Notes: generated by a model from the letters alone, not told the origin. A DNA stretch of 64,000 nucleotides from Minisyncoccota bacterium (GCA_017991515.1 JAGOQI010000002.1:15088-79087); one strand, 5' to 3'; numbered from the stretch's first letter, positions 2,666-52,063 are shown. Program-made: numbers and translations.

Positions 2666-2746
2666 AACTATACCACTGTTTTGAGCCTTATAAAAGCTGG
2701 TATTTTATTTGTCATTTCCAAGGTTATATAGTATGATGTTTCGCAT

Positions 2747-3015: not shown

Positions 3016-3936
3016 ATGGCAAACCGCCACTTATCAAGATCTATTGTTCTTCAATCATTGTTCGAATGGGACTTCTCAAATAAAAAAGAAGATCTGAAAA
3101 GTGTTATAGATAAAAATACAGAAGAATTTGCACCAGGTCACTCTGATGGTCCTTTTATGTACGAGCTTGCTCAAACCGTGGAACGCAAACAACAAGTCAT
3201 AGACGATATTATTGTTAAGGCGGCACCAGATTGGCCACTTGAGAAGATTTCAAATGTGGATCGAAGCGTTCTTCGTATGGGCCTTGCTGAACTTCTCTTC
3301 GGAGATAGAGATCAAGTGCCACCAAAAGTAGCTATCAATGAAGCTATTGAACTAGCCAAAACATTTGGAGGAGAAAATAGTGGTAAGTTTGTAAATGGTG
3401 TTTTAGGTGCTGTTTACAAAGAAATAGGTGAACCAGGAAAAGATCAAGTTACAAAATCTAAATCTCCAAATAGTAAAAAACCAGAAAATTTTAATGAAGA
3501 AGATTTAACCAAACTTCCAATTAGTCGCAAGGCTGGTGCAGTTGTATATGCTATTAAAGATGAGAAAATACATGTTGCCTTAGTTCATGACGTTTTCGGC
3601 TACTGGACCCTTTCTAAGGGGAGTGTTGAAGAAGGAGAGAGTCTTGAACAGGGTGCTGCTCGTGAAATTAAAGAAGAAATAGGTTTAGATATCGAAGTTC
3701 AAGATAAATTAGGCGAAATAGAATATATAGCATATCACCCAACAGAAGGTAAAATTAGAAAACAGGTAACATTTTTCTTGGGTAAGTCTGAGTATAAAGA
3801 GCTTGAGCTTGAAAAGGGTACAGGCGGTCTCGATAGAGCTTCATGGTTCAAACCAGAAGAAGTTCTTGACTTAACAGTATATGATGATATATTGCCGTTA
3901 CTTGCGAAAGCGATTGAAATTATAAATAGTAAGTAG
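3016..3936 (+). CDS. nusB: transcription antitermination factor NusB fused to a C-terminal Nudix hydrolase domain
   Basis: N-terminal ~140 aa NusB fold (LAELLFGD...FVNGVLGAVYKE); C-terminal region carries a perfect Nudix box GSVEEGESLEQGAAREIKEEIGL (GX5EX7REUXEEXGU); one continuous 306-aa ORF. Confidence 0.8.
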   Translation: MANRHLSRSIVLQSLFEWDFSNKKEDLKSVIDKNTEEFAPGHSDGPFMYELAQTVERKQQVIDDIIVKAAPDWPLEKISNVDRSVLRMGLAELLFGDRDQVPPKVAINEAIELAKTFGGENSGKFVNGVLGAVYKEIGEPGKDQVTKSKSPNSKKPENFNEEDLTKLPISRKAGAVVYAIKDEKIHVALVHDVFGYWTLSKGSVEEGESLEQGAAREIKEEIGLDIEVQDKLGEIEYIAYHPTEGKIRKQVTFFLGKSEYKELELEKGTGGLDRASWFKPEEVLDLTVYDDILPLLAKAIEIINSK

Positions 3937-3999
3937 AGTCTAAAGTAGAGCGTCAGCATAGATATGCTACCTTCCACTTTATACTTTCAATATAAAAAT

Positions 4000-4689
4000 A
4001 TGAAAGATTTTAGTGAATTTGAGAAAAAAATAGGAATTACTTTTAAAGATCAAAATGTACTCCAACAAGCTTTTACGCACCGCTCATATATAAATGAAAA
4101 TCCAAAAAGCGGACTCTCTCACAATGAGCGCTTAGAGTTTTTGGGTGACGCAGTTTTAGAATTGGTTGTTACTGATTATTTATTTAATACTTATAAAGAT
4201 CATGCAGAAGGGGATTTGACTGCTTATAGAAGTGCTCTTGTGAATGCTGTTGTTGCAGCAGAAGTAGCGCAATCTTTAGATATGAATGAATATTTACTTC
4301 TTTCAAAAGGAGAAAGTAAAGATACAGGAAGAGCAAGACAAACAATATTAGCGAACGCTTATGAATCTTTCATTGGCGCTCTTTATCTTGATCAAGGCTA
4401 TGAAGTTTGTAATGTTTTTATCAAAAAAACATTAATACCAAAACTGACAGATATAATAAGTAAAAAATCTTGGCGTGATGCAAAAAGTCATATTCAAGAA
4501 GAAGCCCAAGAGCGTTTGGGTATAACTCCGAGTTATGAAGTAGTAGGACAACTCGGTCCAGACCATGATAAGTTTTTCACTGTAGGAATATATTTTGGAG
4601 AAAAGAAAATAGCTGAAGGGAAAGGTAGAAGTAAGCAAGAAGCTCAACAAGCCGCAGCTCAATCCGCACTTGAGAAAAAAGGTTGGTAG
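4000..4689 (+). CDS. rnc: ribonuclease III
   Basis: RNase III signature ERLEFLGDAVLELVV plus a C-terminal dsRBD; start moved to the internal Met (MKDFSEF), which is more plausible than the track start at 3964. Confidence 0.9.
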   Translation: MKDFSEFEKKIGITFKDQNVLQQAFTHRSYINENPKSGLSHNERLEFLGDAVLELVVTDYLFNTYKDHAEGDLTAYRSALVNAVVAAEVAQSLDMNEYLLLSKGESKDTGRARQTILANAYESFIGALYLDQGYEVCNVFIKKTLIPKLTDIISKKSWRDAKSHIQEEAQERLGITPSYEVVGQLGPDHDKFFTVGIYFGEKKIAEGKGRSKQEAQQAAAQSALEKKGW

Positions 4690-5742: not shown

Positions 5743-5757
5743 GATATACTTAACAAG

Positions 5758-8043
5758 ATGCGTTTGCAGAATATAGAAATATCTGGATTCAAGTCGTTTG
5801 CCAAAAAAGCAAACCTTTCTTTTAGCGCACCAGTAACTGCTGTTGTTGGGCCAAATGGTTCAGGTAAGAGTAATGTTGTTGAGGCATTTCGTTTTGTTCT
5901 AGGCGAACAATCTATGAAGAGCATGAGAGGAAAGAGTGGTTCTGATCTTATCTTTAAAGGAGGTGCTAATTCACCAAAACTCTCGAGAGCATCTGTCACT
6001 ATTACATTTGATAACTCTGACAAAGTCTTTGCCTTCCTGTCTGCGCAGGCAGGTCAAACTGGAGAAATAGCTTCTCCTGTACTTTTTGACACTGTGACAT
6101 TTTCTCGTGAACTTTTTGCCGATGGTACTAGCAAGTACTCTATGAATGGCACTGAAATAAAACTCAAACAAATGGTCGAGTTACTTTCTTCTGTAAATAT
6201 TGGTACCTCTAGTCACCATATCATTTCTCAGGGTGAAGCAGATGGGATATTGCGAGCTAATGCTAAAGATCGCCGGGGCATACTTGAAGATGCTTTGGGT
6301 CTTAAAATTTATCACCATCGTATTAGAGAAAGTGAATCAAAGCTGACTAAAACACTTGAGACTCTTAAAGAAGTTTCTTTGCTGAGGAGAGAGCTTGCTC
6401 CACATTTAAACTTTCTTAAAAAACAAGTTGAAAAGATAGAGAAGGGTAGAGTTATTAGAGACGAGCTAAAATCTGCGTTAGTCAGATTCCTTTCTACAGA
6501 AAAAGACCATCTTTCAAAAGAGGAAAATCGTATCAAAGAAGCAATGTCTTTGATACAAAATCAAAAATCTTCTTTAGAAAAACAATTATCAGATTTACCA
6601 GAGAAAAATGCAGACTCAGGATATGAAATCATTAAAGAAATAGAGAAACAAAAAAGCTTACTTATTTCTCTACAAGAAAAAAGAAGATCATTAGAGCAAA
6701 AAGTAGGTAGGTTTGAGGGTGCTATAGAAGCACACAGAAGTATTTCTCAGAGACAAAATAATAATGTCGCTCAAGGACCAAGCATCTCTTTTGCACCAAC
6801 AGAATACAATCAAATACTCTCTGACATTGAATTTTTTGTTTCTTCTATAAAAAATGCAAAAAGCCTTGAGTCTGTAAATGAAGCAATAATAAAACTTACT
6901 CCACTTATAGAAAGACTAAAAGCTCGAGCACCAGAAGATAAAAAGATAGACCAAATAAATACAGATATCCCAGATATTAGAGAAACGGTTTTGGAGCTGG
7001 AAGCCTTACAAAAAGAGCTTATACCTCTTATAAAACAAGAACAAGAAGCTTCTTTAAATATTGTTTCTCTAGAAAAACAAAGAGAACAAGCATTGTTGAC
7101 AAGTGCATCTTCTACAGAGTCTCGCTATAAACTCGGTAGCGATATTAAACAATGTGAAGCAGAACTTCAAATACTAGCTGTTACAAAAAGCGCTTTTATC
7201 CAAAGAAAAGAAAACTTTGATCAAGACATAAAAGAAGCTGCATTTTTATTTGGCCCAAGCTTTTTGCACGAATTACATACTTCTAATGCGGAAAATGATT
7301 TAGACACACACGATTTAAAAAGGTCTATAGATAGGCTTAAAATCAGATTAGAAGAACACAGTGGTATAGGTAATGATGTTGTGACTGAATACGAAAGTAC
7401 AAAAGAGCGTGATGCATTCTTAACTCGTGAACTTATCGACATAGAAACTAGTGTTAAAACATTAAGCTCTCTAATAGTCGATTTGAAAAAGGTTCTTGAT
7501 GAAAAATTTACAAAAGGTGTCGAAACTATTAATACTCGTTTTGGAGAATTTTTCAAAACTATGTTTGGAGGAGGAAGTGCTTTCTTATCTATCACTATTG
7601 AAAAAGGTAGAAAGAAAAAAACTGATGAAGACGATATAGGTAACTTTAATGAGGAAGACCTGCCTGCGCAGGCAGGAGAAGGTTTTGAAAGAGGGATAGA
7701 AGTACACGTGAATCTTCCAGAGAAAAAAGTCAAAGAACTCAACATGCTCTCAGGTGGAGAGCGATCTCTTGTTTCCATTGCGCTTCTCTTTGCTATTTCT
7801 CAAGTAAATCCGCCTCCATTTCTAGTACTCGACGAGACAGACGCTGCGCTAGACGAAGCAAACTCTCGGCGCTATGGAGATATGGTAGAGCGGCTCTCAG
7901 AGTACTCTCAGCTCATTGTGGTCACTCACAACCGCGAAACTATGTCCCGCGCCTCTGTGCTCTATGGTGTCACCCTCGGTTCAGACAGTGGTTCCAAACT
8001 CCTTTCTATCAAGTTTGACGAAGCAGTTAAAGTTGCGAAGTAA
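5758..8043 (+). CDS. smc: short SMC-like chromosome segregation ATPase (761 aa)
   Basis: N-terminal Walker A VVGPNGSGKSNV; C-terminal ABC signature LSGGERSLVSIALLFAI and Walker B LVLDETDAALD; long coiled-coil between them. Confidence 0.8.
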   Translation: MRLQNIEISGFKSFAKKANLSFSAPVTAVVGPNGSGKSNVVEAFRFVLGEQSMKSMRGKSGSDLIFKGGANSPKLSRASVTITFDNSDKVFAFLSAQAGQTGEIASPVLFDTVTFSRELFADGTSKYSMNGTEIKLKQMVELLSSVNIGTSSHHIISQGEADGILRANAKDRRGILEDALGLKIYHHRIRESESKLTKTLETLKEVSLLRRELAPHLNFLKKQVEKIEKGRVIRDELKSALVRFLSTEKDHLSKEENRIKEAMSLIQNQKSSLEKQLSDLPEKNADSGYEIIKEIEKQKSLLISLQEKRRSLEQKVGRFEGAIEAHRSISQRQNNNVAQGPSISFAPTEYNQILSDIEFFVSSIKNAKSLESVNEAIIKLTPLIERLKARAPEDKKIDQINTDIPDIRETVLELEALQKELIPLIKQEQEASLNIVSLEKQREQALLTSASSTESRYKLGSDIKQCEAELQILAVTKSAFIQRKENFDQDIKEAAFLFGPSFLHELHTSNAENDLDTHDLKRSIDRLKIRLEEHSGIGNDVVTEYESTKERDAFLTRELIDIETSVKTLSSLIVDLKKVLDEKFTKGVETINTRFGEFFKTMFGGGSAFLSITIEKGRKKKTDEDDIGNFNEEDLPAQAGEGFERGIEVHVNLPEKKVKELNMLSGGERSLVSIALLFAISQVNPPPFLVLDETDAALDEANSRRYGDMVERLSEYSQLIVVTHNRETMSRASVLYGVTLGSDSGSKLLSIKFDEAVKVAK
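6036..6055 (-). repeat. GC-rich palindromic element GACCTGCCTGCGCAGACAGG, copy inside smc
   Basis: Near-perfect 18-bp palindrome with core CTGCGCAG in AT-rich coding DNA; encodes FLSAQAGQ in-frame. Confidence 0.8.
7657..7676 (+). repeat. GC-rich palindromic element GACCTGCCTGCGCAGGCAGG, second copy inside smc
   Basis: Perfect 18-bp palindrome CCTGCCTGCGCAGGCAGG; encodes DLPAQAGE in-frame. Confidence 0.8.
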
Positions 8044-8085
8044 ATCAAAATTAGTTATAAATAAAGAAAAAGGAGGTTAATTTTT

Positions 8086-8280
8086 ATGAGTAATTTAAAT
8101 ACAAAGGAACCTCTTCAAGTAAAAGAGGTCTCCAGGTTGCCAGAGTGTAATTTTTGCAAAGAAGAAGCAAATATTCAAACTGCTGATGGTGGTATGGAGA
8201 TTAATTTATGTGGTTTAGATAATCACCCTGAATACGAAGACATACCAATGGTTAGTCTTGTTCTTGTAAAAGCTGAATAA
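8086..8280 (+). CDS. hypothetical small protein (64 aa)
   Basis: One of the few ORFs in the window with a strong SD-like AAGGAGG 8 nt upstream; bounded by a terminator downstream. Confidence 0.5.
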   Translation: MSNLNTKEPLQVKEVSRLPECNFCKEEANIQTADGGMEINLCGLDNHPEYEDIPMVSLVLVKAE

Positions 8281-10306: not shown

Positions 10307-10469
10307 AGCCGTTACCTCCCAAATAGGGAGTCGTTTTTTGAAAATTGTATAGAGAACGCGAGTTCTCAAAGTCTATTTTATGTAATTTGAGTATTTTCAA
10401 ACTTGGGCAAAAGTTTTTCTTTTGCCTCATTCTAGTCGGCATTTTATTTATAAAAGCCAACTTATATTA

Positions 10470-12008
<1,539 letters not shown>

Positions 12009-12189
12009 TTGAGATTGTTCTGATTGTACCTCAGGTACACAGGATTGATACGGTTGATCATTGTTCTGCAAAGAATAATGGTGTTGTGGTAAGCGACGTA
12101 ATGCTTACTCCTTGCGCCAAGGTTATGGCGCAAAAATCCCTGGTGTGTATTCTATAGAGCACATCATGGTAGAATGAGGCAATAGAAAG

Positions 12190-12714
12190 ATGATTGCTGA
12201 AAATATTCAAAACAATAAACAAGACAAGAAAACTCGCGTTCTCAATACAATTTATATTCTTGCAGGAGGAGCACTTTTATTAGTGCTCTTTTTGCTTTTA
12301 AATAAACAATTAAATACAAGAAATATGAGTGTTAATAGTATTTATGATACCACTATCAGTATTAGCGGAGTTAAAATACCAGTAACAATAGCTGATACTG
12401 ATGAACAGAGAGAACAAGGCCTTTCTAATACTCAATATTTAGAACCTAATACTGGGAAACTCTTTGTTTTCAACAATCCTGGGGATTATGGATTTTGGAT
12501 GAAGGATATGAATTATCCTATTGATATTATATGGATAGATAAAAATACCAAGATTATTGGCATTTCCAAAGATTTGAGACCAGAGACTTATCCAGAAATT
12601 TTTTACCCTCCAAGTGAAGTAGTTTATGTTTTGGAAGTTAATGCAGGTTTTTCCACAGCTAATGATATCTTTGAAAATCAATTCATTCTCTTTAACCAAG
12701 AACTGGTTTTTTAG
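12190..12714 (+). CDS. DUF192-family protein with an N-terminal transmembrane segment
   Basis: VTIADTDEQREQGLSN...GFWMKDMNYPIDIIWIDKN...YVLEVNAGF matches the DUF192 / COG1430 pattern. Confidence 0.6.
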   Translation: MIAENIQNNKQDKKTRVLNTIYILAGGALLLVLFLLLNKQLNTRNMSVNSIYDTTISISGVKIPVTIADTDEQREQGLSNTQYLEPNTGKLFVFNNPGDYGFWMKDMNYPIDIIWIDKNTKIIGISKDLRPETYPEIFYPPSEVVYVLEVNAGFSTANDIFENQFILFNQELVF

Positions 12715-15907: not shown

Positions 15908-15954
15908 AGTTATTTTAATAATTAATATATAGTGTTTTTGTTGTACCGAATGAT

Positions 15955-16210
15955 CGCGCTTACTCATAAGAGTATGTGAGGAAAGTCCGAACACATAACG
16001 ATTTAATTCGTACAGGTAGTGGGTAATACCCATCGTGGGCAACCATAGGGCTGCGAACAGTGACGAATCCCTTTAGTGGGAGTGAAACGGCTAAATGCCT
16101 ATCCGTGTGCAAGACCGTGCTGAGAAATCAGAGTGTCGCTTGAGGATGACAGTAATATCATTCCCAGATAAATGATCACTAGAACAGAACTCGGCTTATG
16201 AGTACAACAA
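15955..16210 (+). ncRNA. rnpB: RNase P RNA (compact bacterial type)
   Basis: P4 5' strand GAGGAAAGTCCG near the start and P4 3' strand ACAGAACTCGGCTTA near the end; P1 pairing TACTCATAAG/CTTATGAGTA; CCATAGGGCTGCGAACAG and GTGAAACGG motifs; terminator directly downstream. Confidence 0.7.
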
Positions 16211-16213
16211 ATA

Positions 16214-16243
16214 TCAAAAAAATCCGCACAACGCGGATTTTTT
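16214..16243 (+). terminator. rho-independent terminator after rnpB
   Basis: AAAAAAATCCGCACAACGCGGATTTTTTT. Confidence 0.75.
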
Positions 16244-21008: not shown

Positions 21009-24000
21009 TTATAAAACCTTTATATTATCAATCAAAACAGATACTTTACCATCTCTATTTGTAGCTGAGCATTCCATAGCCGATACTATACCAGCAGATA
21101 TAAGAGAGCCAATTTTAGCGAAAGTTTCAGGGAAGACAACTGCTTCTATTTGTCCCGTCTTGTCCTGTATTGTTAAAAAGGCCATTTTTTTGCCACTAGA
21201 CTTTGTCATTATTATTTTTACTGTGTCTATATGAGCGACAAGTATTTCTTTTTTCTTTTGATCTCTACCAAATTTTGTAAAAGGTTTTTCTGTCTGAGCT
21301 CCTGAAATAAGCTTCTTTATAGTTGTTCCAGATCTTTTGAGTTGATCGTCGTGTACATCAAGTGGGTGACCTGAAATATACATACCCAATAGCTCTTTCT
21401 CCCAAGATAACTTTTGAGTTAGTGTTGCAGGTGTAGTTTCTTTGAGATTCAAAATACTCATAGGTTTACTGTCCAGATTATCAAAAAGAGATACGCTTTG
21501 ACTATTATTTGAAGAGATAATATTTTTATGAAATGTTAAAAGCTCTTCGATATTGCTTGCTAAAACATTTCTATCTCCAAACGAATCCATTGCTCCACAC
21601 ATAACAAGAGCCTCTAGAGATTTTTTGTTTAGATTTTTATGAGTAACCCTCTCCAAGAAGTCTTCTATGTTTTTATATTTACCTCCCGTTTTTCGCTCTG
21701 CTATTATTGCTTTTCCTATTTCTACTCCAAAGTTTTTAATATTGTTTAATCCGAAGCGGATTTTGTTGCTAACTTCTCCATCTTCAACCACCACAGTAAA
21801 ATCAGAAAAAGATTCATTAATATCTGGAGGAAGTATAGTGAAGCCCATTTTTTTGGCTTCTTCTATATATTCGCTACATGTTTCTATATCGCCACTTTCT
21901 GCAGTCATACAGGCACTCATGTATTCAGCAGGGTAGTTAGCTTTCAAATAAGCTGTTTTGTAAGCCACCATTCCATAACTTGCAGCATGGGCTTTGTTAA
22001 ATCCATAAGCTTGAAAAGGTTCAAATAGTTTCCATAACATTTCTGCAAATTCTTTGGTTTGACCATTTTCAACAATACCTTTCTGCAATTTTTCTTTTTG
22101 AGCTGCCATTTCTGCCGGGATTTTTTTACCAACTGCTTTACGAAACTTATCAGCCTCAAGCCAGTCATAACCTGCGAGTTCTATAGCACTAAAGAGAAGG
22201 TCGTCTTGATAAACAATAAGTCCATAAGACGCTTGTAAATAACTTTCCATTCTAGGATCAAGAAATGTTACCAATCTAGGATTATTTTTTCTTTTGATAT
22301 ATTCAGGGATAACATCCATCGGCCCAGGTCGATAGAGAGCCACCATGGCCATTAAGTCTTCTACTTTCGAAGGTTTTAGATCTTTGATATAAGCAGTCAT
22401 ACCGTCTCCAGCCATTTGGAAAACACCAACAGTTTCTCCACGAGATAGCATTTCAAAGACTTTTGGATCGTCCAGTGGAATGTTATCCATATCTATTTTT
22501 ATGCCACGGATTTTTTCTATTCGCTCTATTGCTCCAGAGATAAACTGTAAATTTCTTATACCAAGCATATCGAACTTTGGTAGATTTACTACACCATCTC
22601 TACCACCTGAGAACATATCGTACCCCGTAATTATTTTATTTTCACCTTTTGGATCATATTGGATAGGTGTGAATTCTGTAATGTCAGGAGTAGGGGAAAT
22701 AACAACACCAGCAGCATGGATAGATATATGTCTAACATTTCCTTCTATCTTTTTTGCTAAGTCTATAACTTCTTTTGTAGGTCGATCTTCTTCGTATAAC
22801 TTTTTTAGATCAGGTTCTATCTCAAGAGCGTGCTCTATGGTCATAGGAAAGCCCTGGCTGCCCATAGGGATAAGTTTGGCCGCAATGTCTCCAACTGAGT
22901 AAGGATATCCTAATGCTCTGGCTACATCTCTCACAGAGCCACGAGCAGCCATAGTTCCAAAAGTACAAATTTGGGCCACAGCCTTTTCTCCGTATTTTTG
23001 TTTGGCATAATTTATCAAATCATCTCGTCTATCATCAGCAATATCCAAATCAATATCAGGAATACCAGGACGAAGTGGGTTTAAAAATCTTTCAAAAGGA
23101 AGTTTGTATTTGAGAGGGTCAACAGTTGTAATACCACACAGGTATGAGACTAGAGAGCCAGCAGCCGATCCTCGAGTATTTGTATAAATACCCATTTCTC
23201 GAGCAGCTCGCACCAAATCAGCCACAACCAAAAAGTATGAAGGAAAACCTTTATTTTTTATAATTTCAAGTTCAAATTCTATTCGCTCTAGAGCTTCAGA
23301 TGTTTTTTCATAAGACATTTTTTTAATTCCATCTTCTACAGCCTTGCGTAGCTCATCATCATAATTTGCTCCTTCTGGTATAGGGTAAGTAGGGAACTTC
23401 CATGGTTCAAGTTCTATATCTATATCCACAAGTTCAGCAACCTTCAATGTGTTTTCAATCGCTTCTGGTATATTGGCAAAAATTTCTCTAGCTTTGTCGC
23501 CATCTATAAAAGAATAATTTCCTCCAAACTTAAAGTTTTGATTGTTAGTGTTGATAGCCAGTAATGTGTTATGAGCTTCTTTATCATCTTCATTTAAATA
23601 ATGAGAATCCCAAGTTCCGACTATTGGCAAATCTACTTCTTTGGCAATCTCTATAATAGTAGGGATGAGCGGTATATACCAATCAACTTCTTCATGCACC
23701 ATTATTTCTACAAAGACATACTCCTTACCAAACATTTTTATATATCTTTGTAACAATGCTTTTGCCTCATCTTTATTTCCATTTTTTAGATGATTTATAA
23801 ATTGGCTCCCTGGACAACCTGATAAGCATATAAGACCATCAGAGTGCTCTGTTATCAGATCAAGGTCCATTCGAGGTTTATAATAAAATCCTTCAAGATT
23901 ACTTTTACTAACCAGTTTCATTAAGTTTTTGTAGCCGGCATTGTTGCGAGCTAAAAGAGTGAGGTGATATCTTTTATTATCGAGTCCTGCTTCCTTGTCA

Positions 24001-24224
24001 TGCATACTTCTTTGGGCGATATAAGCCTCAACTCCAATGATAGGTTTGATGTCATTTTTCTTGCACTCATTATAAAACTCAATAGCACCATAAAGTACGC
24101 CGTGGTCAGTCAATGCCAATGCAGGCATGCCCAGCTCTTTGGCTCTTTTTACCAAATCTTTAACCTTGGACATGCCATCTAGTAGGGAATAATGGCTATG
24201 TGTGTGGAGGTGGACGAAACTCAT
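21009..24224 (-). CDS. dnaE: DNA polymerase III alpha subunit
   Basis: N-terminal PHP domain VHLHTHSHYSLLDG, polymerase core, C-terminal OB fold; start trimmed to MSFVHLHTHS. Confidence 0.9.
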   Translation of the reverse strand: MSFVHLHTHSHYSLLDGMSKVKDLVKRAKELGMPALALTDHGVLYGAIEFYNECKKNDIKPIIGVEAYIAQRSMHDKEAGLDNKRYHLTLLARNNAGYKNLMKLVSKSNLEGFYYKPRMDLDLITEHSDGLICLSGCPGSQFINHLKNGNKDEAKALLQRYIKMFGKEYVFVEIMVHEEVDWYIPLIPTIIEIAKEVDLPIVGTWDSHYLNEDDKEAHNTLLAINTNNQNFKFGGNYSFIDGDKAREIFANIPEAIENTLKVAELVDIDIELEPWKFPTYPIPEGANYDDELRKAVEDGIKKMSYEKTSEALERIEFELEIIKNKGFPSYFLVVADLVRAAREMGIYTNTRGSAAGSLVSYLCGITTVDPLKYKLPFERFLNPLRPGIPDIDLDIADDRRDDLINYAKQKYGEKAVAQICTFGTMAARGSVRDVARALGYPYSVGDIAAKLIPMGSQGFPMTIEHALEIEPDLKKLYEEDRPTKEVIDLAKKIEGNVRHISIHAAGVVISPTPDITEFTPIQYDPKGENKIITGYDMFSGGRDGVVNLPKFDMLGIRNLQFISGAIERIEKIRGIKIDMDNIPLDDPKVFEMLSRGETVGVFQMAGDGMTAYIKDLKPSKVEDLMAMVALYRPGPMDVIPEYIKRKNNPRLVTFLDPRMESYLQASYGLIVYQDDLLFSAIELAGYDWLEADKFRKAVGKKIPAEMAAQKEKLQKGIVENGQTKEFAEMLWKLFEPFQAYGFNKAHAASYGMVAYKTAYLKANYPAEYMSACMTAESGDIETCSEYIEEAKKMGFTILPPDINESFSDFTVVVEDGEVSNKIRFGLNNIKNFGVEIGKAIIAERKTGGKYKNIEDFLERVTHKNLNKKSLEALVMCGAMDSFGDRNVLASNIEELLTFHKNIISSNNSQSVSLFDNLDSKPMSILNLKETTPATLTQKLSWEKELLGMYISGHPLDVHDDQLKRSGTTIKKLISGAQTEKPFTKFGRDQKKKEILVAHIDTVKIIMTKSSGKKMAFLTIQDKTGQIEAVVFPETFAKIGSLISAGIVSAMECSATNRDGKVSVLIDNIKVL

Positions 24225-24568
24225 AAAGAGGATTATACCAAGGTATAAAAATAACTGACACTTGACAGGAAATCTCAAAGGAGTAGGATTATTATAAATA
24301 TTTCAGAAGAAGAAAAAAAGGGTTGGAACATCTTAACTCCTCCAAAAATCTCTTAAGTGTCGGCTGTTGAAAAATATCCTAAAAACACAAAAGAGTCATT
24401 GGATTAAGCTTTTAGACAGACTCTGACAATCTCTTCTTTTTGAGAGGGTTTTAATTTGATGACCAGATATCTTTAACCAAACTACTCTATAGGAGTACAT
24501 AAACTGAAGATAGTGGTCTTAGTCCTGAAAACGACCAAAAAAACAATTGTGAAGCAAGATTTTGAGCA

Positions 24569-24603: not shown

Positions 24604-24615
24604 TATGATACCTTT

Positions 24616-25200
24616 ATGAAATACATCATCGGTATAGACGAAGTCGGACGAGGTCCTATTGCTGGGCCAGTGGCGGTTTGTGTTTGTGCTATACCAAAAA
24701 CTTTTTATAAAAAACAAGATTGGCGAGGTTTGACTGATTCAAAGAAAATGACCGCCAAGTCTAGGGAACTTTGGTATCAGAAAGCAAGAGATTTAAAGAA
24801 AAAAGGCTTGATAAATTATTCTGTAATTTACAGAAGTAATATTTTTATAGATAAAAAGGGTATAAGCATTGCTATCAAAGAGTGTATAAATGAAGGTTTA
24901 GAAAAATTAAATTTAAATCCCAAAGATTGTGAAGTTCTTCTTGATGGGTCATTAAAAGCTCCACTAGAATATAAAAATCAAAAGACTTTTATAAAAGGGG
25001 ACCAGAGCCAGAAGATTATTTCTTTAGCTTCAGTTGTTGCCAAAGTCTCTAGAGATAAAAAAATGGAGCTTTTACACAAAAAATATCCTAAATATAACTG
25101 GGTTCAAAATAAGGGCTATGGAACAAAAGATCATTATAAAGCCATAAAAAAATACAAAATAACGAATTTACATAGAAAAACCTTCTTGACCTCCTACTAA
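24616..25200 (+). CDS. rnhB: ribonuclease HII
   Basis: GIDEVGRGPIAGPVAVCVCAI matches the RNase HII active-site region. Confidence 0.85.
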   Translation: MKYIIGIDEVGRGPIAGPVAVCVCAIPKTFYKKQDWRGLTDSKKMTAKSRELWYQKARDLKKKGLINYSVIYRSNIFIDKKGISIAIKECINEGLEKLNLNPKDCEVLLDGSLKAPLEYKNQKTFIKGDQSQKIISLASVVAKVSRDKKMELLHKKYPKYNWVQNKGYGTKDHYKAIKKYKITNLHRKTFLTSY

Positions 25201-34525: not shown

Positions 34526-34876
34526 TTATTTGTTTTCTTTCACTCTAAATTTTACTATTTTTTCAATCAGAGAGTAAGGTATAGGTTTTTCATATTTAAA
34601 TCTTATACAGCCTTTTGAAGTGCTAAAAGATAAGAGATCTTTCTGAAAATTTTTTATAGCAGAAGGAGCTGGATAGAAACCTAGATGCCCCTTCATTGCT
34701 GCAAAGTGTACAAGGTTGCCATTGAGTTCAAATGTTGGCATTCCGTACTTGATAGATTCTATTGCTTTTGGGGCAGACTTACTAATAACCTCTCGAACTT
34801 TCTGTAAGATTACTTGTTTGTCTTTCGGGAAATCTTTTATGTAGGCATCTATTGTTTTATAAATCTTTTTGTTCAT
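34526..34876 (-). CDS. DUF1801 domain protein
   Basis: IDAYIKDFPKD...YGMPTFELNGNLVHFAAMKGHLGFY fits DUF1801. Confidence 0.55.
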   Translation of the reverse strand: MNKKIYKTIDAYIKDFPKDKQVILQKVREVISKSAPKAIESIKYGMPTFELNGNLVHFAAMKGHLGFYPAPSAIKNFQKDLLSFSTSKGCIRFKYEKPIPYSLIEKIVKFRVKENK

Positions 34877-34927
34877 AAATAAATTATATCAGCTATATGA
34901 CTGATTATCTTTTAAACTAAAATTTTA

Positions 34928-37686: not shown

Positions 37687-37716
37687 ACTCTTGCCCAGAA
37701 ATGCTATAATAAGGAT

Positions 37717-38079
37717 ATGAATATTTCAATCAAAACAACAAATATTGAATTAACACCAGCGCTTAAAGATTATACAGAAAAGCGTATCTCAGGGATAAAT
37801 AAGTTTACAGGCGAAGAGGTAACAGCTGCTGTCGAAATAGGTAAGACAAGTAATCATCATAAAAATGGTGAAGATCTTTTTAGAGCAGAGGTAAATGTCA
37901 CAACTTCTTTAGGTAAACAACTTCGAGCAGTATCAGAGAAATCAGATTTGTATGAAGCTATAGATGATGTGCGAGAGCAAATGGTGAGAGAACTTAAATC
38001 TGCAAAAGGTAAAGAAGATGCTCTGTGGAAAAAAGGTGCGAGAAAAATAAAATCTATGATGAGAGGTTTTCGTAGCTAA
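37717..38079 (+). CDS. hpf: ribosome hibernation promoting factor (RaiA/HPF family)
   Basis: MNISIKTTNIELTPALKDYTEKRI matches the HPF N-terminus. Confidence 0.8.
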   Translation: MNISIKTTNIELTPALKDYTEKRISGINKFTGEEVTAAVEIGKTSNHHKNGEDLFRAEVNVTTSLGKQLRAVSEKSDLYEAIDDVREQMVRELKSAKGKEDALWKKGARKIKSMMRGFRS

Positions 38080-38890
38080 CCTTCTTTCCATTTTCTGGGA
38101 TAACTTCTTCTATTACAAACTGCCCTGCCTGCGCAGACAGGTCCCATTCTAGGTGGGCTTTTGTTATTTTTATTCGTCTATCGTTTTGGAAAAAATAAGT
38201 ACCGATAGAGCCAAAATAAGCACGATACTTTCTATCATTTGTTGTCGCTTCCTCGTTTAGATTTATTTCGCCCTCTTCTTTGGATATTTTCTTGCAATGT
38301 GAAGCTTCTCCTGCCTGCTCTTGCGCTTTTATTGTTTCATCAAAAATACTTTTTATAACAGAAGGTAATAGTTTTATAGCAACTGAGTTTAGTTTTTCTC
38401 GAAGTGTTGGAGTTGTGTCTGTAGGGTCTATGCTAACTTCTTCTGAAACAAATATAGGACCGCTGTCGAGTTCGTAACGCATTTGTTGTATGGCTATACC
38501 TGTTTTTTTATCACCGTTTAAAATAGCACTCTCTACAGGAGTAGCTCCGCGATACTTCGGTAGTAGGGAATAGTGAACATTTATAGTCCCATATTTGGGT
38601 AAGTTGATCACTCTCTCAGGGATTATTTTGCCATAAGCAATAACGACAAATAAATCCCAAGATTCTTTTGATAATTCTTCAAAGAATTCATCATTTAGTT
38701 TCTCTGGTTGTAAAACTTTTATATCATTTTCTTGACCCCAAACTTTTGGTCCTGGGGCTTTTAGAGTCATACCGCGACCTGATGGCCTATCAGGGTTTGT
38801 GACTACTAGAGAAGGGGATAAAACATGCTCTTTAAGAGTTTCCAAGAAAGAAACAGTAAAATCCGGCGTCCCAAAAAATGCAATTTTCAT
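38054..38890 (-). CDS. fmt: methionyl-tRNA formyltransferase
   Basis: MKIAFFGTPDFTV, VVTNPDRPSGRG and INVHYSLLPKYRGATP motifs; its 3' end overlaps the hpf 3' end by 26 nt (convergent). Confidence 0.85.
   Translation of the reverse strand: MKIAFFGTPDFTVSFLETLKEHVLSPSLVVTNPDRPSGRGMTLKAPGPKVWGQENDIKVLQPEKLNDEFFEELSKESWDLFVVIAYGKIIPERVINLPKYGTINVHYSLLPKYRGATPVESAILNGDKKTGIAIQQMRYELDSGPIFVSEEVSIDPTDTTPTLREKLNSVAIKLLPSVIKSIFDETIKAQEQAGEASHCKKISKEEGEINLNEEATTNDRKYRAYFGSIGTYFFQNDRRIKITKAHLEWDLSAQAGQFVIEEVIPENGKKVSYENLSS
38124..38143 (-). repeat. GC-rich palindromic element GACCTGTCTGCGCAGGCAGG inside fmt
   Basis: Near-perfect 18-bp palindrome with core CTGCGCAG; encodes DLSAQAGQ in-frame; a degenerate relative (CCTGCCTGCTCTTGCGC, encoding AQEQAGEA) lies about 180 nt away at 38308-38326. 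Confidence 0.8.
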
Positions 38891-39020: not shown

Positions 39021-39524
39021 TTATTTTGTCGGAGCCTCCTTGTTTGGTGGTAAGTCTTCAACATCCACAGCTTTGTCGATGAAAAGTACGCCGTTTAGAT
39101 GATCTGTCTCGTGTTGGAAGATTTGAGCAAGTAAGCCTTTGCCACTCATGACAAATTCATTTCCTTCCATATTTGTAGCTCGCACTGTTGCGGTGAGAGA
39201 TCTTTTGACCATGCCGTACTTCCATCTAACACTTAGGCAACCTTCAGAGACCATTTCTTTTTTCTTGCCAAGTTTTGTAATAACAGGATTAATAAAAACC
39301 ATATCCTCAAGAGCTTTCGGTAATGCTCTTTTTGAAACTACAAATATTCGCAGTGGTACATCTATCTGAGGAGCAGCAATAGCCACGCCGTCATCTTCAC
39401 CGTGTAAAAGTTCTTTCATTTTTTCAACTACATCTTTTATTTCTTTAGATTTTATTTCAGAGGCAGAAACTTCTTTTGCAATACTTCGAAGTGTAGCGTG
39501 GGGGGATTGGATGATACCAGGCAT
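39021..39524 (-). CDS. def: peptide deformylase
   Basis: GVAIAAPQIDV, EGCLSV and HETDHLNGVLF motifs. Confidence 0.9.
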   Translation of the reverse strand: MPGIIQSPHATLRSIAKEVSASEIKSKEIKDVVEKMKELLHGEDDGVAIAAPQIDVPLRIFVVSKRALPKALEDMVFINPVITKLGKKKEMVSEGCLSVRWKYGMVKRSLTATVRATNMEGNEFVMSGKGLLAQIFQHETDHLNGVLFIDKAVDVEDLPPNKEAPTK

Positions 39525-42797: not shown

Positions 42798-43943
42798 TTA
42801 TTCAGCTTTTGTTCCTGTCTGCGCAGGTAGGTCTGTATGAGCAGATTCTGTAGGCAGGTCTTCTAGCTTTTGTTCACCGAAGACAAGTGTCATCTTTTGT
42901 TCTTTTGGTTCAAAAAGATTCACTGTGAAAGGATAGTTTTTACCGAGTTGCAATGCTTCTTTTAATTTCTCTTCTCCTCCAAATGTAGAGTTGTGCACTA
43001 GGCCCGCAACACCTTCTTGGATAGATACGAGGGCACCGTGTTTGTTGTATTTGATAACAACACCTTTAATAACATCTCCTCGCTTTAGAGTTTTTTCGAA
43101 AGCTTTCCAAGGATTGTCTTTCAGAGCTTTGATAGAAAGAGAGATTTTACCTTCTTTGATATCTATTATTTTTGCTTTAACCATATCTTTAACCTTGAAC
43201 ATACTTCGAGGATCTTCTACAAGTCCCCAGTCTAGTTCACTGATGTGTACCAAACCTTCAAGACCATCTTCTAGTTTCAAGAATACTCCAAAGTCAACAA
43301 CGCCAGTGATCTCGCATGATAGTTCGTCACCAACAGCGTATTTACTGATAACTTCTTGTCGCTCTTCAGGATTACTTTCTTTTTCAGAGAAAATAAGTTT
43401 GCCATCTTTTGGGTTTGCAGAAATCATAGTTACTGCGATTTTTGTTCCAACAAGCTTCTTAAGTTCTTTCAAAATCTTGTCTTTGTCTGAGTCTTCTACA
43501 CGAGGGTAGTGATCAGGCTTTAGTTGTGAAGCTGGTAAGAAACCAGAAACACCTTGCCAGTCAATGATAAGACCACCTTTGTTAGCATCTTTGATAGTTA
43601 AATCAAAAATAACTTTGTCTTTGATAGCTAGGTCTGCTTCACTCCATATCAAAGCTTGTTTTGCTTCTTTTAGAGAAAGTTCTATATAACCATCTTCGTT
43701 TTCAATATCAACAACTTTCGCTTTCACTCCGTCGCCAACATTCGCCTTTTTTAATAAATCACGAACAGCCATGAACTCTCGTCCATAAATAATACCTGTA
43801 CCGTACGGTGTTAGGTCTATATAAACTGCTGCTTTGTCTACTGCAATAATAGGTCCTTCAACCAACTCTTCAAGAGAGGGTCGAACTTTCACTACTTCTT
43901 CTGTAGATGAATCTTCTTTAATTGTCTCTGTGTCTGTTTTCAT
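42798..43943 (-). CDS. rpsA: 30S ribosomal protein S1 (short form with several S1 domains)
   Basis: Repeated S1 domains (GVVDFGVFLKLEDGLEGLVHISEL); start trimmed to MKTDTE. Confidence 0.8.
   Translation of the reverse strand: MKTDTETIKEDSSTEEVVKVRPSLEELVEGPIIAVDKAAVYIDLTPYGTGIIYGREFMAVRDLLKKANVGDGVKAKVVDIENEDGYIELSLKEAKQALIWSEADLAIKDKVIFDLTIKDANKGGLIIDWQGVSGFLPASQLKPDHYPRVEDSDKDKILKELKKLVGTKIAVTMISANPKDGKLIFSEKESNPEERQEVISKYAVGDELSCEITGVVDFGVFLKLEDGLEGLVHISELDWGLVEDPRSMFKVKDMVKAKIIDIKEGKISLSIKALKDNPWKAFEKTLKRGDVIKGVVIKYNKHGALVSIQEGVAGLVHNSTFGGEEKLKEALQLGKNYPFTVNLFEPKEQKMTLVFGEQKLEDLPTESAHTDLPAQTGTKAE
42814..42833 (-). repeat. GC-rich palindromic element GACCTACCTGCGCAGACAGG at the 3' end of rpsA
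   Basis: 18-bp near-palindrome with core CTGCGCAG; encodes DLPAQTGT in-frame, just before the stop. Confidence 0.75.
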
Positions 43944-44384: not shown

Positions 44385-44478
44385 TTGTGATAAAAAAATA
44401 GAGGAGTAATTAGTTATATTAAAAACTTAGGAGCCCAGGCTCCTTTTTTTGTTTTTGCATTTTTGCTATGATATCCCC

Positions 44479-45114
44479 ATGGTTATCACATATTACGGCA
44501 AACAATACTGCAAACTGACTTTAGGAGATCTGACTATCGCTATTAATCCGCCAGCAAAAACTTCAAAAGCTATGCCGAAGCCTCCACGATTTGGAGCTGA
44601 CATTGTTCTTATTACAACAAATCACCCAGACTACAACGGTGTTGAAACTGTCACAATGGGGGACAAAGAACCTTTTGTTATAGATGGCCCAGGTTCTTAC
44701 GAAGTTAAAGAATGTTTTATTACTGGAGCAAAGAGCACTGTTGTTTTAGAAGGCAAAGAATATATAAATACTGTTTATGGTTTTGAACTAGATGGTATAA
44801 AAGTAGTTGTTTTAGGTGCACTCTCTGATGTTGCGACTCTTTCAACAGAAGCCAAAGAGATAGCAGGAGCATCAGATTTGTTATTTATCCCTATTGATGG
44901 AGGAGATGTTTTTGATACTGTAAAAGCTTACAAAGCAGCTACATCTTTTAGTCCAAGTATTCTTATCCCTATGGCCTCTGACGAATCTCTAATAACACGA
45001 CTTTTGAAAGAAGCAGGGCAGGACAAGACTGAAATGGCTGACAAAGCAACACTTAAGAGAAAAGATTTAGAAGGAAAAGAAAGTTTTATAGTAGCCTTAA
45101 CACCTCAAGCATAA
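44479..45114 (+). CDS. metallo-beta-lactamase-fold-like protein with a degenerate metal-binding motif
   Basis: Start trimmed to MVITYYGKQYCKL; the overall pattern (ITYYGK...INPP...ADIVLITTNHPDYNG) parallels UPF0173 MBL-fold hydrolases, but HxHxDH is replaced by TNHPDY. Confidence 0.4.
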   Translation: MVITYYGKQYCKLTLGDLTIAINPPAKTSKAMPKPPRFGADIVLITTNHPDYNGVETVTMGDKEPFVIDGPGSYEVKECFITGAKSTVVLEGKEYINTVYGFELDGIKVVVLGALSDVATLSTEAKEIAGASDLLFIPIDGGDVFDTVKAYKAATSFSPSILIPMASDESLITRLLKEAGQDKTEMADKATLKRKDLEGKESFIVALTPQA

Positions 45115-47949: not shown

Positions 47950-47977
47950 TTCAACTTCACTATCTTACCGGTATAAT
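47950..47977 (+). promoter_or_regulatory. sigma70 promoter of the methyltransferase / solute-binding / pilin-like operon
   Basis: TTCAAC, 16-nt spacer, TATAAT, immediately upstream of 47984. Confidence 0.5.
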
Positions 47978-47983
47978 ATAAAC

Positions 47984-48508
47984 ATGTTCATGGACCCGGT
48001 CCTGTTGTTGCAATCATGTCATTTGAAACCTACTGATTCAGTAGCAGACTTTGGTGCCGGCTCTGGTTTTATGGCCAAGACTATTGCAAACATTGTAACT
48101 TCAGGCAATGTTTTTGCTGTTGAAATAAATAGAGATCTAGTAGCTCGTATTATTCATGAAGTAGAGGATAACCATATAAAAAACATTCATCCACTTTGGG
48201 GTGATGTTGAAATAATAGGTGGATCAAAGCTAGGAGAGAAAAGTGTTGATGTAGCAGTATTTTCTAATATTTTATTTCAGCTTGATGATAAAAAAAATGC
48301 CCTAAAAGAAGCATTTCGTATTTTGAAAGATGGAGGACATTTGATAGTTGTTGATTGGCAGGAGTCATTTGGTGGACTTGGTCCAAAACCAGAGAGAGTT
48401 TTGACAAAAGAAATGGCAGAAGAACTTATTTCTTCTGTTGGTTTTACAAAACTCTCCGATATTTCTCCAGCTGGAGAGCATCATTATGCTATACTTTTTA
48501 AGAAATAA
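47984..48508 (+). CDS. class I SAM-dependent methyltransferase (small-molecule or RNA type)
   Basis: Motif I DFGAGSGFMAK; motif post-I and II spacing typical of UbiE/SmtA-like methyltransferases; not a DNA methyltransferase. Confidence 0.65.
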   Translation: MFMDPVLLLQSCHLKPTDSVADFGAGSGFMAKTIANIVTSGNVFAVEINRDLVARIIHEVEDNHIKNIHPLWGDVEIIGGSKLGEKSVDVAVFSNILFQLDDKKNALKEAFRILKDGGHLIVVDWQESFGGLGPKPERVLTKEMAEELISSVGFTKLSDISPAGEHHYAILFKK

Positions 48509-50357: not shown

Positions 50358-50372
50358 TGATATAATAATATT

Positions 50373-50927
50373 ATGAAAATCCGCCACCTTCTTTTAGTCT
50401 TACTCCTTGTTCTTGGGATTTTTAGTACTACTTTTGCTCAAGCACCAGTTAGATCTCCACAAAATCCTCCTGTACAGTCTCCAAATCAATGTAATGATGG
50501 GAAAGATAATGGTGATGGCGACAATCTGGCTGATGACAAAGATCCAGATTGTAAAACTGGAGTAAAATGTGAAGATGGTACAACAAAATGTATAACTCAA
50601 GCAGGTACAGGAACTAGTGGCACAACTTCAGGCTCTGATGCCACTGATTTTGACCTAAAGGTTCGCATAAATAATCCTTTGAAAGTTGGAACTATATCTG
50701 AAGCTATAAGTTTGTTCATGAACGCCGTGCTTCGTATTGCTATACCATTTATCATCATCTTCTTTATTTGGAGTGGTTTAAGCTTTATATTGGCTCGGGG
50801 TAACCCTGAAAAAATAAAAACTGCCAAAAATATGTTTTGGTATACTGTTATCGGTACACTTCTGATACTTGGAGCTTGGACTATTACAAACGCTATTATT
50901 GGTACAGTTAATTCGATAACAGGATAA
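50373..50927 (+). CDS. secreted pilin-like protein, paralog 2
   Basis: Signal peptide; QCNDGKDNGDGDNLADDKDPDC; C-terminal IPFIIIFFIWSGLSFILARGNPEKIKTAKNMFWYTVIGTLLILGAWTITNAIIG. Confidence 0.6.
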   Translation: MKIRHLLLVLLLVLGIFSTTFAQAPVRSPQNPPVQSPNQCNDGKDNGDGDNLADDKDPDCKTGVKCEDGTTKCITQAGTGTSGTTSGSDATDFDLKVRINNPLKVGTISEAISLFMNAVLRIAIPFIIIFFIWSGLSFILARGNPEKIKTAKNMFWYTVIGTLLILGAWTITNAIIGTVNSITG

Positions 50928-50929
50928 TT

Positions 50930-51583
50930 ATGTTTAAAAAACTCATCACAATTTCTACTTTAGTTTTATCTCTATCTTTTCTATTTAGTTTAAATGTAAA
51001 TGCACAACAAATACCAACTTGTGACTTAAATACTCCTGTCACAAGCCAAAACTTCCCACTATGTTGTCCGTCACAGATTCCAGGGCAAATACAAAAATGT
51101 GCACTTTTTTGTATTAATAACCCAACAGAGATAGCTTGTAACCCAAACATTCGAGGGGGTGGACCGACAACACCTGGGACTAATCCTACAAATACAGGCA
51201 CAACACCAGGAACTATAGCAAATACTCCACAACCCAAGTCTTCAGAATTATCTTCTTGCAATGTTATCGCTTTTGATTCTCTTTTAGATATTTTGATCTG
51301 GCTTAAATGTATTATAGGAAGTGCTATTATTCCTCTTATATTCACCTTAGCTTTCTTGTACTTCCTTTGGGGGATGGTTCAATACATCCGTAATGCCAAT
51401 AACGAGAAGAAGAGGGAAGAGAGTAAAAAATTTATTTATGTAGGTATTATTGCTCTGACTGTTATGGTCTCTGTTTGGGGGATTGTTAGGATAGTTACTA
51501 GTACATTTGGTTTAGGTAATACTGTTCCGCAGCTTCAAACAGATTGTTTGACCAATACCAAGGAAAACCCTTGTAAAAAATAG
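50930..51583 (+). CDS. secreted pilin-like protein, paralog 3
   Basis: Signal peptide; Cys-rich region and a T/P/G-rich linker; C-terminal IPLIFTLAFLYFLWGMVQYIRNANNEKKREESKKFIYVGIIALTVMVSVWGIVRIVTSTFGLGN. Confidence 0.6.
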   Translation: MFKKLITISTLVLSLSFLFSLNVNAQQIPTCDLNTPVTSQNFPLCCPSQIPGQIQKCALFCINNPTEIACNPNIRGGGPTTPGTNPTNTGTTPGTIANTPQPKSSELSSCNVIAFDSLLDILIWLKCIIGSAIIPLIFTLAFLYFLWGMVQYIRNANNEKKREESKKFIYVGIIALTVMVSVWGIVRIVTSTFGLGNTVPQLQTDCLTNTKENPCKK

Positions 51584-51647
51584 GGTTGTGGTATACTTAT
51601 AGGGTATCGTATTTATAAAATATTAATATTAAAAACCGTAAATTTAT

Positions 51648-52055
51648 ATGAAAAAAATAGTTGTTTCGTTATTTGTCCTTGCTCTTCTTGTTTTACCAGC
51701 CGCAGTGTCTGCTCAGTTAGGTGGCCCTCGACCAAACTTTACCTACGCTAACACTGCAGTTGAACAGATTATAAGATGGTCACAAATGGCAGTTACATTT
51801 TTGATGATTATTGCTACTTTGTGGTTTATCTGGACTGTTATTGGTTATATCCGAGTCAAGGATGCTACTAAAGCAGAAGATGCTAAAAAGGCGATGATCA
51901 GAGGTATTATAGGACTTTTTGTTATCGTAACTATCTGGGGTATAGTTCGTATTTTAGCAAGTACACTAGGAGTAACAGGTGGATCATTAAATACTGAAGA
52001 TACTCCTTGTCCTCCAGGTATGACATATAGTACTCTTGATAGAGTTTGTCGATAA
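51648..52055 (+). CDS. secreted pilin-like protein, paralog 4
   Basis: Signal peptide MKKIVVSLFVLALLVLPAAVSA; VTFLMIIATLWFIWTVIGYIRVKDATKAEDAKKAMIRGIIGLFVIVTIWGIVRILASTLGV; C-terminal CPPG...VCR. Confidence 0.6.
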   Translation: MKKIVVSLFVLALLVLPAAVSAQLGGPRPNFTYANTAVEQIIRWSQMAVTFLMIIATLWFIWTVIGYIRVKDATKAEDAKKAMIRGIIGLFVIVTIWGIVRILASTLGVTGGSLNTEDTPCPPGMTYSTLDRVCR

Positions 52056-52063
52056 TCTAAACT

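Follow-up and report, generated by a model that had tools for sequence, protein, structure and literature searches.

In Parcubacteria, an anti-Shine-Dalgarno (anti-SD) motif at the 3' end of 16S ribosomal RNA (rRNA) was detected in only 48% of members by Tsurumaki et al. 2022 (RNA 28:1041; PMC9297842), and the anti-SD-less Parcubacteria overlap the lineages that lack uL1 (PMC9297842). Here we describe the 16S rRNA gene, its 3' tail and the surrounding start regions in a 64,000-nucleotide stretch of DNA from a Minisyncoccota bacterium (GCA_017991515.1 JAGOQI010000002.1:15088-79087), hereafter the window, with all positions counted from its first letter. The locus is like the Parcubacteria of Tsurumaki et al. 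(PMC9297842) in belonging to the same clade, in having no CCUCCU after helix 45 and in encoding a probable short bS1 of 3-4 domains; it differs in what could be seen, as the published survey was statistical and without per-gene initiation signals, which are added here. The loss of the anti-SD itself is thus already published for the clade, and what is new here is the evidence for leaderless-type promoters, the exclusion of a compensated Shine-Dalgarno (SD) system and a covarying hairpin in the 16S tail.

Anti-SD-less 16S rRNAs are also carried by Blattabacterium, Chryseobacterium, Elizabethkingia, Riemerella, some Mycoplasma and Ca. Carsonella (PMC6107228); these bacteria are generally without SDs, and no compensated pairs are known (Amin et al. 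2018, Lim et al. 2012; PMC6107228). The window organism shares with Blattabacterium-type bacteria a 13-nucleotide (nt) tail without CCUCC, the lack of an upstream SD and the lack of a compensated SD, but these are unrelated lineages and independent losses. Bacteria rich in leaderless mRNAs form a second point of comparison and include Mycobacterium, Streptomyces and Deinococcus, as well as the 'group C' genomes of GeneMarkS-2; such bacteria are the subject of Cortes et al. 2013 and Jeong et al. 2016, both cited in PMC12641261. A -10 box fixed 6-7 nt before the start of many genes is common to them and to the window; however, they keep a canonical anti-SD and SDs on their leadered genes, whereas the window organism has no anti-SD at all. 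In Bacteroidetes, according to Jha et al. 2021 (NAR 49:547), as cited in PMC9723584, CCUCC is retained and hidden by bS21, bS18 and bS6. SD-independent initiation (proposed for the window) and A-rich, unstructured starts are shared by both, but CCUCC is occluded there and the sequence itself is absent from the window 16S. Mammalian mitochondrial ribosomes have no anti-SD, translate leaderless mRNAs and contain a reduced set of ribosomal proteins. All three traits have a counterpart here (leaderless mRNAs as a prediction), but mitochondria have another evolutionary origin and dedicated factors, whereas the present system is that of a free bacterial genome which encodes an S1-like protein. A parallel between Parcubacteria and mitochondria in ribosomal protein loss has been drawn in PMC9297842.

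The window was found to encode a full-length bacterial 16S rRNA at 10463-12009 on the plus strand, matching model positions 1-1533 of RF00177 (Infernal/Rfam) and scoring 1346 bits, where the gathering score is 50. The match was not truncated, and helix 44, helix 45 and the GGAA loop were all intact. Two elements define its 3' end:

11973-11996, plus strand: helix 45, CACGGCTAGC-GGAA-GCTGGTCGTG, a Parcubacteria-type stem with the GGAA loop whole, from the Infernal alignment
11997-12009, plus strand: the 13-nt 3' tail, GAUUAACUCAAAU, aligned opposite the consensus GAUcACCUCCUUu with maximal posterior probability

When the 3' part of the 16S was re-run alone in Infernal, the arms of helix 45 were placed as CACGGCUAGC-GGAA-GCUGGUCGUG, and in the 3' alignment GGAUUAACUCAAAU was set opposite the consensus GGAUcACCUCCUUu, again with maximal posterior probability. 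The positions equivalent to CCUCC (12002-12006) read ACUCA (ACTCA in DNA), and the anti-SD core is missing from the tail. The original prediction had claimed a tail without CCUCC and no CACCTCC before the next gene, and had called for a structure-aware alignment; that alignment ended at 12009 with no CCUCC further downstream, and neither CACCTCC nor GGATCACC occurred between the 16S end and the next open reading frame (ORF) at 12190, so that both claims stand. Scored as by Amin 2018 and Tsurumaki 2022, on the 13-nt tail after helix 45, the window 16S is without CCUCC(U). The alignment gave no CCUCC in the tail that could be sequestered in the manner of Bacteroidetes. In MazF-type 'stress ribosomes' the 16S is without its 3'-terminal 43 nt, which removes both helix 45 and the anti-SD; here helix 45 and the GGAA loop are encoded intact and the tail sequence alone differs. 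Relative to the model, the 16S also has two expansions, at 10540-10583 and 11607-11655; the first, near the 5' end, replaces 8 consensus nt with an insert of 44 nt, and the second, around position 1150 within the gene, forms an AT-rich hairpin (gcccagccc...gggctggg).

We assign the source to the uncultured Parcubacteria/Paceibacterota of the candidate phyla radiation (CPR), as a Nomurabacteria-like bacterium. Its helix 45, tail and trailer are identical or nearly identical to those of three metagenome-assembled genomes (MAGs), one carrying the label Ca. Paceibacterota (L034) and two that of Ca. Nomurabacteria (L028, L080); the lineage of these relatives is given as Patescibacteria group; Parcubacteria group. 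One independent assembly (L001) aside, full-length 16S identity to the other retrieved clade members was at most 84%. GTDB species genomes were scanned for GTCGTAACAAGG-N10-GGAA-N10-GATTA, but GATTA after helix 45 was rejected as a clade-specific anchor, as SAR11, Rickettsiales, Saccharibacteria and others have GATTACCTCC; canonical tails dominated among the matches listed from that scan and were reused as controls. The signature CACGnnTAGC / GCTGnnCGTG was taken as the clade type of helix 45, and a metagenome scan anchored on it, with the tail left free, yielded at least 120 further loci. Among the matches listed, 144 of the 146 16S 3' ends with this signature had no CCTCC in the tail, and because of this we regard the loss of the anti-SD as a clade trait of Parcubacteria, which extends the comparison with related genomes that the original prediction had proposed. 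The tails were diverse and AT-rich (AACUCA, AAUUCC, AAUUCA, AUUUCA, AUUUUUUU, AAUUAAAC and others). Labels seen with the clade type of helix 45 were Paceibacterota, Nomurabacteria, Kaiserbacteria, Jorgensenbacteria and Minisyncoccia, all of these loci being without CCTCC, and every group-labelled locus was of the Parcubacteria group except for some labelled Saccharibacteria (both among the matches listed). These last MAGs (L012, L015, L024, L064, L068) have a Parcubacteria-type helix 45 and anti-SD-less tails, whereas true Saccharibacteria read TATCCGTACC... GATTACCTCC; we take them as mislabelled, the other possibility being that their 16S contigs are chimeric bin contents.

The loss of the anti-SD was mirrored in the start regions. 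Non-overlapping ORFs of at least 100 amino acids (aa) were taken from their first ATG, and the interval from -20 to -4 was compared with a control offset at -57 to -41; a set of 20 validated starts, in which the N-terminus aligned to the beginning of a curated profile, included those of thrS, rpmF, infB, clpB, pyk, dnaE, smc, hpf, rnhB, def, fmt and pth, together with nusB, nrdA/B, hisS, gyrA and secA. SD-like 4-mers preceded 9 of 52 window ORFs against 6 of 52 at the control offset (p=0.29), and 2/20 validated starts against 2/20; the mean duplex energy to a canonical anti-SD was -2.68 versus -2.42 kcal/mol (p=0.39). E. coli, in contrast, gave 24/42 annotated starts against 7/42 controls, 17/41 against 6/41 with the same script and crude start rule, and a mean duplex energy of -5.50 versus -3.30 kcal/mol. 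Across the anti-SD-less Parcubacteria loci, 89 of 590 genes had an SD-like 4-mer compared with 55 of 590 at the control, with mean duplex energy unchanged. The earlier observation that genes in the window rarely carry SD motifs was thus borne out by statistics of the kind it had suggested, the window lying at control level under a script that recovers the signal in E. coli. Saccharibacteria had been tried as the SD-positive control and were set aside for E. coli, as their signal was only moderate (22/69 versus 5/69) and they too have leaderless-type promoters.

The k-mers enriched directly upstream of starts were ATAAT, TGATA and TGGTA, which are fragments of a -10 box. When the spacing between a good -10 hexamer and the start codon was plotted, 6 genes fell at 6 nt and 7 at 7 nt, a sharp peak comprising 13 of the 52 window genes, where the control offset had 3 (p=0.006); each other distance up to 36 nt was represented by 0-2 genes, with 4 genes at 37 nt, and the same histogram for E. 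coli had no 6-7 nt case. The extended TGn element was present on 9 of the 13 start-proximal boxes. Genes with such a box include dnaE, thrS, smc, clpB, hpf, rnhB, ddl and def, and the starts of eight were validated by profile alignment. The boxes with their coordinates are:

37705-37710, plus strand: -10 TGcTATAAT, 6 nt before the ATG of hpf (37717-38079), residue 1 at profile position 1
24232-24237, minus strand: -10 TGgTATAAT, 7 nt before the ATG of dnaE (21009-24224), residue 1 at profile position 1-4
5745-5750, plus strand: -10 TGaTATACT, 7 nt before the ATG of smc (5758-8043)
2667-2672, minus strand: -10 TGgTATAGT, 7 nt before the ATG of thrS (911-2659)
59038-59043, plus strand: -10 TATATT, 7 nt before the ATG of clpB (59051-61762)
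24604-24609, plus strand: -10 TGtTATGAT, 6 nt before the ATG of rnhB (24616-25200)
44467-44472, plus strand: -10 TGcTATGAT, 6 nt before the ATG of a metallo-beta-lactamase-fold gene (44479-45114)
47972-47977, plus strand: -10 TATAAT, 6 nt before the ATG of a methyltransferase gene (47984-48508)
50361-50366, plus strand: -10 TGaTATAAT, 6 nt before the ATG of a pilin-like gene (50373-50927)
62167-62172, plus strand: -10 TGcTATACT, 7 nt before the ATG of ddl (62180-63127)
34883-34888, minus strand: -10 TGaTATAAT, 6 nt before the ATG of a DUF1801 gene (34526-34876)

The peak recurred clade-wide, where 76 of 590 genes had a -10 box at 6-7 nt compared with 12 of 590 at the control (p=1e-13). Such a position is the geometry that would be expected if transcription began at the A of AUG, yielding leaderless mRNAs, and it is from this geometry that we infer the transcription start sites. 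Saccharibacteria, which have kept the anti-SD, also showed the 6-7 nt peak (9/69 versus 3/69); because they share it, heavy use of leaderless mRNAs probably preceded the loss of the anti-SD and may have permitted it. In the limited set of literature searched, no paper described leaderless initiation in Parcubacteria, Patescibacteria or the candidate phyla radiation.

The remaining, non-leaderless starts were preceded by 42% A in the interval from -20 to -1, and in the window their start regions folded less stably than a control segment did (-2.84 versus -4.39 kcal/mol). Non-leaderless start regions were likewise less stable than the control across the clade (-3.93 versus -5.31 kcal/mol, p=5e-12). 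Many of the non-leaderless genes are packed tightly behind the preceding gene.

Together these data make it very probable that the organism has an anti-SD-less Parcubacteria ribosome, mRNAs with neither an SD nor a compensating motif, and two SD-independent routes of initiation, in line with the SD-independent initiation first proposed for this locus. Because the CCUCC core is lost from the 16S tail, such a ribosome would be unable to pick start codons through SD:anti-SD pairing. On the first route, promoters would be set so that transcription begins at or next to the A of AUG, and the leaderless AUG would be recognised by the ribosome together with IF-2 and the formyl-methionine initiator tRNA (fMet-tRNA); roughly one gene in four would follow this route, in most cases the leading gene of a transcription unit. 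The remaining genes would use A-rich, weakly structured start regions, probably aided by a short S1 protein and by tight gene packing or coupling. Candidate proteins for the roles proposed here are encoded in the window:

42798-43943, minus strand: S1-domain protein of 381-394 aa, with Pfam S1 in three stretches, corresponding to about domains 1-4 of rpsA
55741-57228, minus strand: IF-2, a short form without the N-terminal region (TIGR00487, 457 bits, residues 6-493 to profile 84-580)
38054-38890 and 39021-39524, minus strand: fmt and def, respectively, of the formyl-methionine initiation cycle (profile matches)

In the alignment to the rpsA models, of 580 positions each, the S1-domain protein spanned 33-370 and scored 212 bits, under the curated NCBIfam cut-offs; it is a probable short bS1 of about four domains. 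The S1 features that the original prediction had flagged for inspection therefore consist of one short S1-like protein, which has the 3-4 S1 domains of the subgroup of Tsurumaki et al. though its score lies below the NCBIfam cut-off. Profile matches to pth and HPF were also found in the window; genes for S21 and uL1 (the rplK-rplA region) were not within these 64 kb.

Several points weigh against this interpretation. The start-codon rule was crude (the first ATG within 40 codons), and a second 16S copy with a canonical tail is formally possible outside the 64 kb seen. The term 'leaderless' is taken wholly from promoter geometry; a generic sigma-70 scan for -35/-10 pairs gave 44 sites versus 48 in shuffles of this 36% GC DNA, and since the generic scan shows no excess over shuffles, the evidence for leaderless transcripts is positional and not a count. 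Clade-wide, in addition, SD-like 5-mers remained slightly over-represented (in 59 genes versus 22, of 590). Lastly, three window genes have a perfect, well-spaced AAGGAGG where we estimate that about 0.4 would be expected by chance; the original prediction had recognised only the one before the ORF at 8086, and on this count it has to be corrected:

8070-8280, plus strand: AAGGAGGT, then 8 nt, then ATG; 64-aa ORF (8086-8280), no family match
52460-52978, minus strand: AAGGAGGT, then 4 nt, then ATG; 168-aa gene (52460-52966), no family match
63780-64000, plus strand: AAGGAGG, then 4 nt, then ATG at 63791; the gene continues past the window end

Recent horizontal acquisition or a purine-rich preference are possible sources of these SD-bearing exceptions and of the 5-mer excess.

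Among the alternatives, the one that fares best concerns the tail itself, whose last bases can pair with the start of the trailer that follows:

12003-12013, plus strand: mini-hairpin (palindrome) CUCA-AAU-UGAG, built from the end of the tail plus the 4 trailer bases that follow it, covarying across the clade
12010-12253, plus strand: pre-16S 3' trailer, conserved and structured (fold z-score -3.56)

Of 73 unique clade tails with a CA-loop-TG core among the matches listed, the inner flanking pair was complementary in 69 and the outer in 71, compared with permutation means of 53 and 66; the four seeming exceptions at the inner pair were regular-expression misplacements in TTCA-ATG-TGAA tails. 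The pair types were TTCA/TGAA, TCCA/TGGA, CTCA/TGAG and GTCA/TGAC, and a switch from U-A to C-G recurred in at least 3 tail backgrounds (GATCAA, GATTAA and GATTAT). As a generic hairpin search gave only a modest excess, with a stem of at least 4 base pairs (bp) in 84% of tails versus 64% of mononucleotide shuffles, the weight was placed on the anchored covariation count. This pattern could mean that the tail has been remodelled, not merely decayed, and that the hairpin is kept on the mature 30S, where it would fill the site of the SD:anti-SD helix as a built-in substitute, a mimic serving leaderless or unstructured mRNAs. Besides the covariation at two stem positions in several tail backgrounds, it would be favoured by helix 26, which contacts the SD helix and is unusually conserved in Parcubacteria for reasons that are unknown (PMC9297842); if true, the mimic would also explain this strong conservation in the clade. 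We nevertheless consider a helix mimic unlikely. The stem has only 4-5 bp and was not predicted by free-energy folding of tail plus trailer, and about one third of the clade tails among the matches listed are T/A runs or other forms without the CA-loop-TG core. In the canonical control genomes, moreover, the anti-SD pairs analogously with the first spacer bases (e.g. CTCCTTTCTAAGGAG), and in B. subtilis maturation removes the 3' half of that pairing. The alternative is that the hairpin is a feature of the precursor and its processing only, or a boxB-like stem before a spacer boxA. Because canonical genomes show the analogous anti-SD/spacer pairing, the simplest reading would be that an ancestral precursor hairpin was retained while the constraint of mRNA pairing was lost. 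The hairpin may act as a signal for 3' processing, serve as a boxB-like stem preceding the putatively boxA-like ATTGTTCT (12014-12021, directly after the tail), or belong to the mature rRNA. The 16S leader contains a similar GTTCTCAAAG at 10362-10371. Many of the non-hairpin Parcubacteria tails (L050, L051, L126-L245) are palindromes of a T run and an A run (GATCATTTTTTTAAAAA), with a recurring GTCGAC/GTTGAC motif about 20 nt downstream, possibly a shared processing or stem element. Pairing of the variant tail with the 16S 5' end (GAGUUUGAUCC) was considered and dropped after viewing by eye; the 5' end is invariant and the clade tails vary.

We also weighed a compensated system, in which the mRNAs would have acquired a different SD-like element, for example UGAGU or UUGAGUUAAU, able to pair with the ACUCA tail. 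Conservation of the tail among close relatives (the window, L001, L034, L028 and L080) could mean a pairing function, but tails vary widely among clade members, and upstream regions (-22 to -3) paired with the variant tail no better than control offsets did, either in the window (-2.14 versus -2.07 kcal/mol, p=0.54) or clade-wide (-2.21 versus -2.21 kcal/mol). TGAG and GAGT had no positional peak, and the enriched upstream k-mers are the -10-box fragments described above, not complements of the tail. With no compensated case among 128 organisms (Amin et al., PMC6107228), this explanation is very improbable.

Equally little credence, or slightly less, is due to a true mature 3' end further downstream that contains an anti-SD-like element: the conserved trailer does hold ACCTCAGG (12027-12034) and CTCCTT (near 12108), but neither is CCUCC, both lie inside covarying hairpin stems and so would not be single-stranded, the first of these hairpins differs in sequence in relatives, and the Infernal alignment stops at 12009, our predicted mature end, with full posterior support. 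The trailer, of about 240 nt, showed compensatory changes in at least 3-4 hairpins across five genomes (window, L001, L034, L028, L080), and matched no Rfam family even at a permissive E-value.

An artefact or pseudogene, with a truncated, misassembled or decaying 3' end and a functional 16S with a normal anti-SD elsewhere, can be regarded as essentially refuted: only one contig window was looked at and rRNA regions of MAGs are often misassembled, but against this stand the full-length model match with helix 44, helix 45 and the GGAA loop intact, the inverted repeats enclosing the gene, the recurrence of the tail in other assemblies and species, and the 144 of 146 clade ends without CCTCC. The original prediction had itself named truncation or misjoining of the rRNA end as what would overturn it, and the repeats and the recurrence exclude both. 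The flanking elements, and two processing factors encoded nearby, are:

10342-10367, plus strand: 5' arm of the outer processing stem, an inverted repeat (I1) with 12228-12253, 26 nt, 92% complementary
12228-12253, plus strand: 3' arm of the outer processing stem, pairing with 10342-10367 (I1)
10407-10434, plus strand: 5' arm of the inner processing stem, an inverted repeat (I2) with 12170-12197, 28 nt, 82% complementary
3016-3936 and 3964-4689, plus strand: a nusB-NUDIX fusion and RNase III, respectively, factors of rRNA antitermination and processing (profile matches)

I1 and I2 flank the 16S in the usual arrangement of a pre-16S processing stem. The same locus was present in two NCBI metagenome assemblies (GCA_020049755.1, GCA_020054605.1) and three Logan run assemblies (SRR11088391, SRR11088409, SRR11088410). 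L001 carries a 16S 98.9% identical to that of the window with an identical tail, and the tail was also found in three other species-level MAGs, namely L034 (Ca. Paceibacterota), L028 and L080 (both Ca. Nomurabacteria). The 16S is unlinked, as the Rfam search gave no 23S gene after it and no second rRNA match in the window. The 3' arm of the inner stem (12170-12197) covers the ATG, at 12190, of a DUF192 gene (12190-12714) whose N-terminus resembles a signal anchor; RNase III cleavage may free this gene from the rRNA precursor, or the gene may rely on a TGgTAGAAT box of its own, located 14 nt upstream. The fusion of NusB, a boxA-binding antitermination factor, to a C-terminal NUDIX hydrolase domain, with RNase III directly after it, is an unusual architecture.

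The 16S also carries variants at two primer sites, where the original prediction had reported substitutions in universal-primer regions:

10975-10996, plus strand: variant of the 515-primer site, GTGCCAGCAGGAGCGGTAATAC, with GGAG in place of CCGC
10822-10838, plus strand: variant of the 341-primer site, CCTACGGGTGGCTGCAG

Both variants are present as claimed, but CCTACGGGTGGCTGCAG fits the degenerate 341F primer, CCTACGGGNGGCWGCAG, leaving the 515 site as the only true mismatch. Among the matches listed, GGAG was found at this site in 20 of 64 clade members and the canonical CCGC in only 7 of 64, which agrees with the divergent lineage proposed at the outset, now placed in the Parcubacteria of the CPR.

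Two further loci in the window are recorded here. The class A RNase P RNA at 15938-16214 is strongly reduced, with 277 nt and large deletions against a 367-position model, and scored 116 bits against a gathering score of 100. At 50373-52402, four consecutive small genes each have a T4SS_pilin domain, the first being the pilin-like gene with a leaderless-type promoter listed above.

For the study of these organisms, the mismatch at the 515 site means that 16S genes of the clade escape the 515F primer. In such genomes, start codons will be misassigned by gene callers whose scoring relies on ribosome-binding sites, and a model for leaderless genes or genes with no ribosome-binding site is advisable; SD elements are likewise not to be relied on in heterologous expression of these genes or in reporters placed in such organisms. 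The promoter-at-start geometry and the covarying tail hairpin provide two concrete hypotheses. Start selection by SD:anti-SD pairing is the textbook mechanism, and a large, abundant radiation without it constitutes a natural test case for SD-independent initiation.

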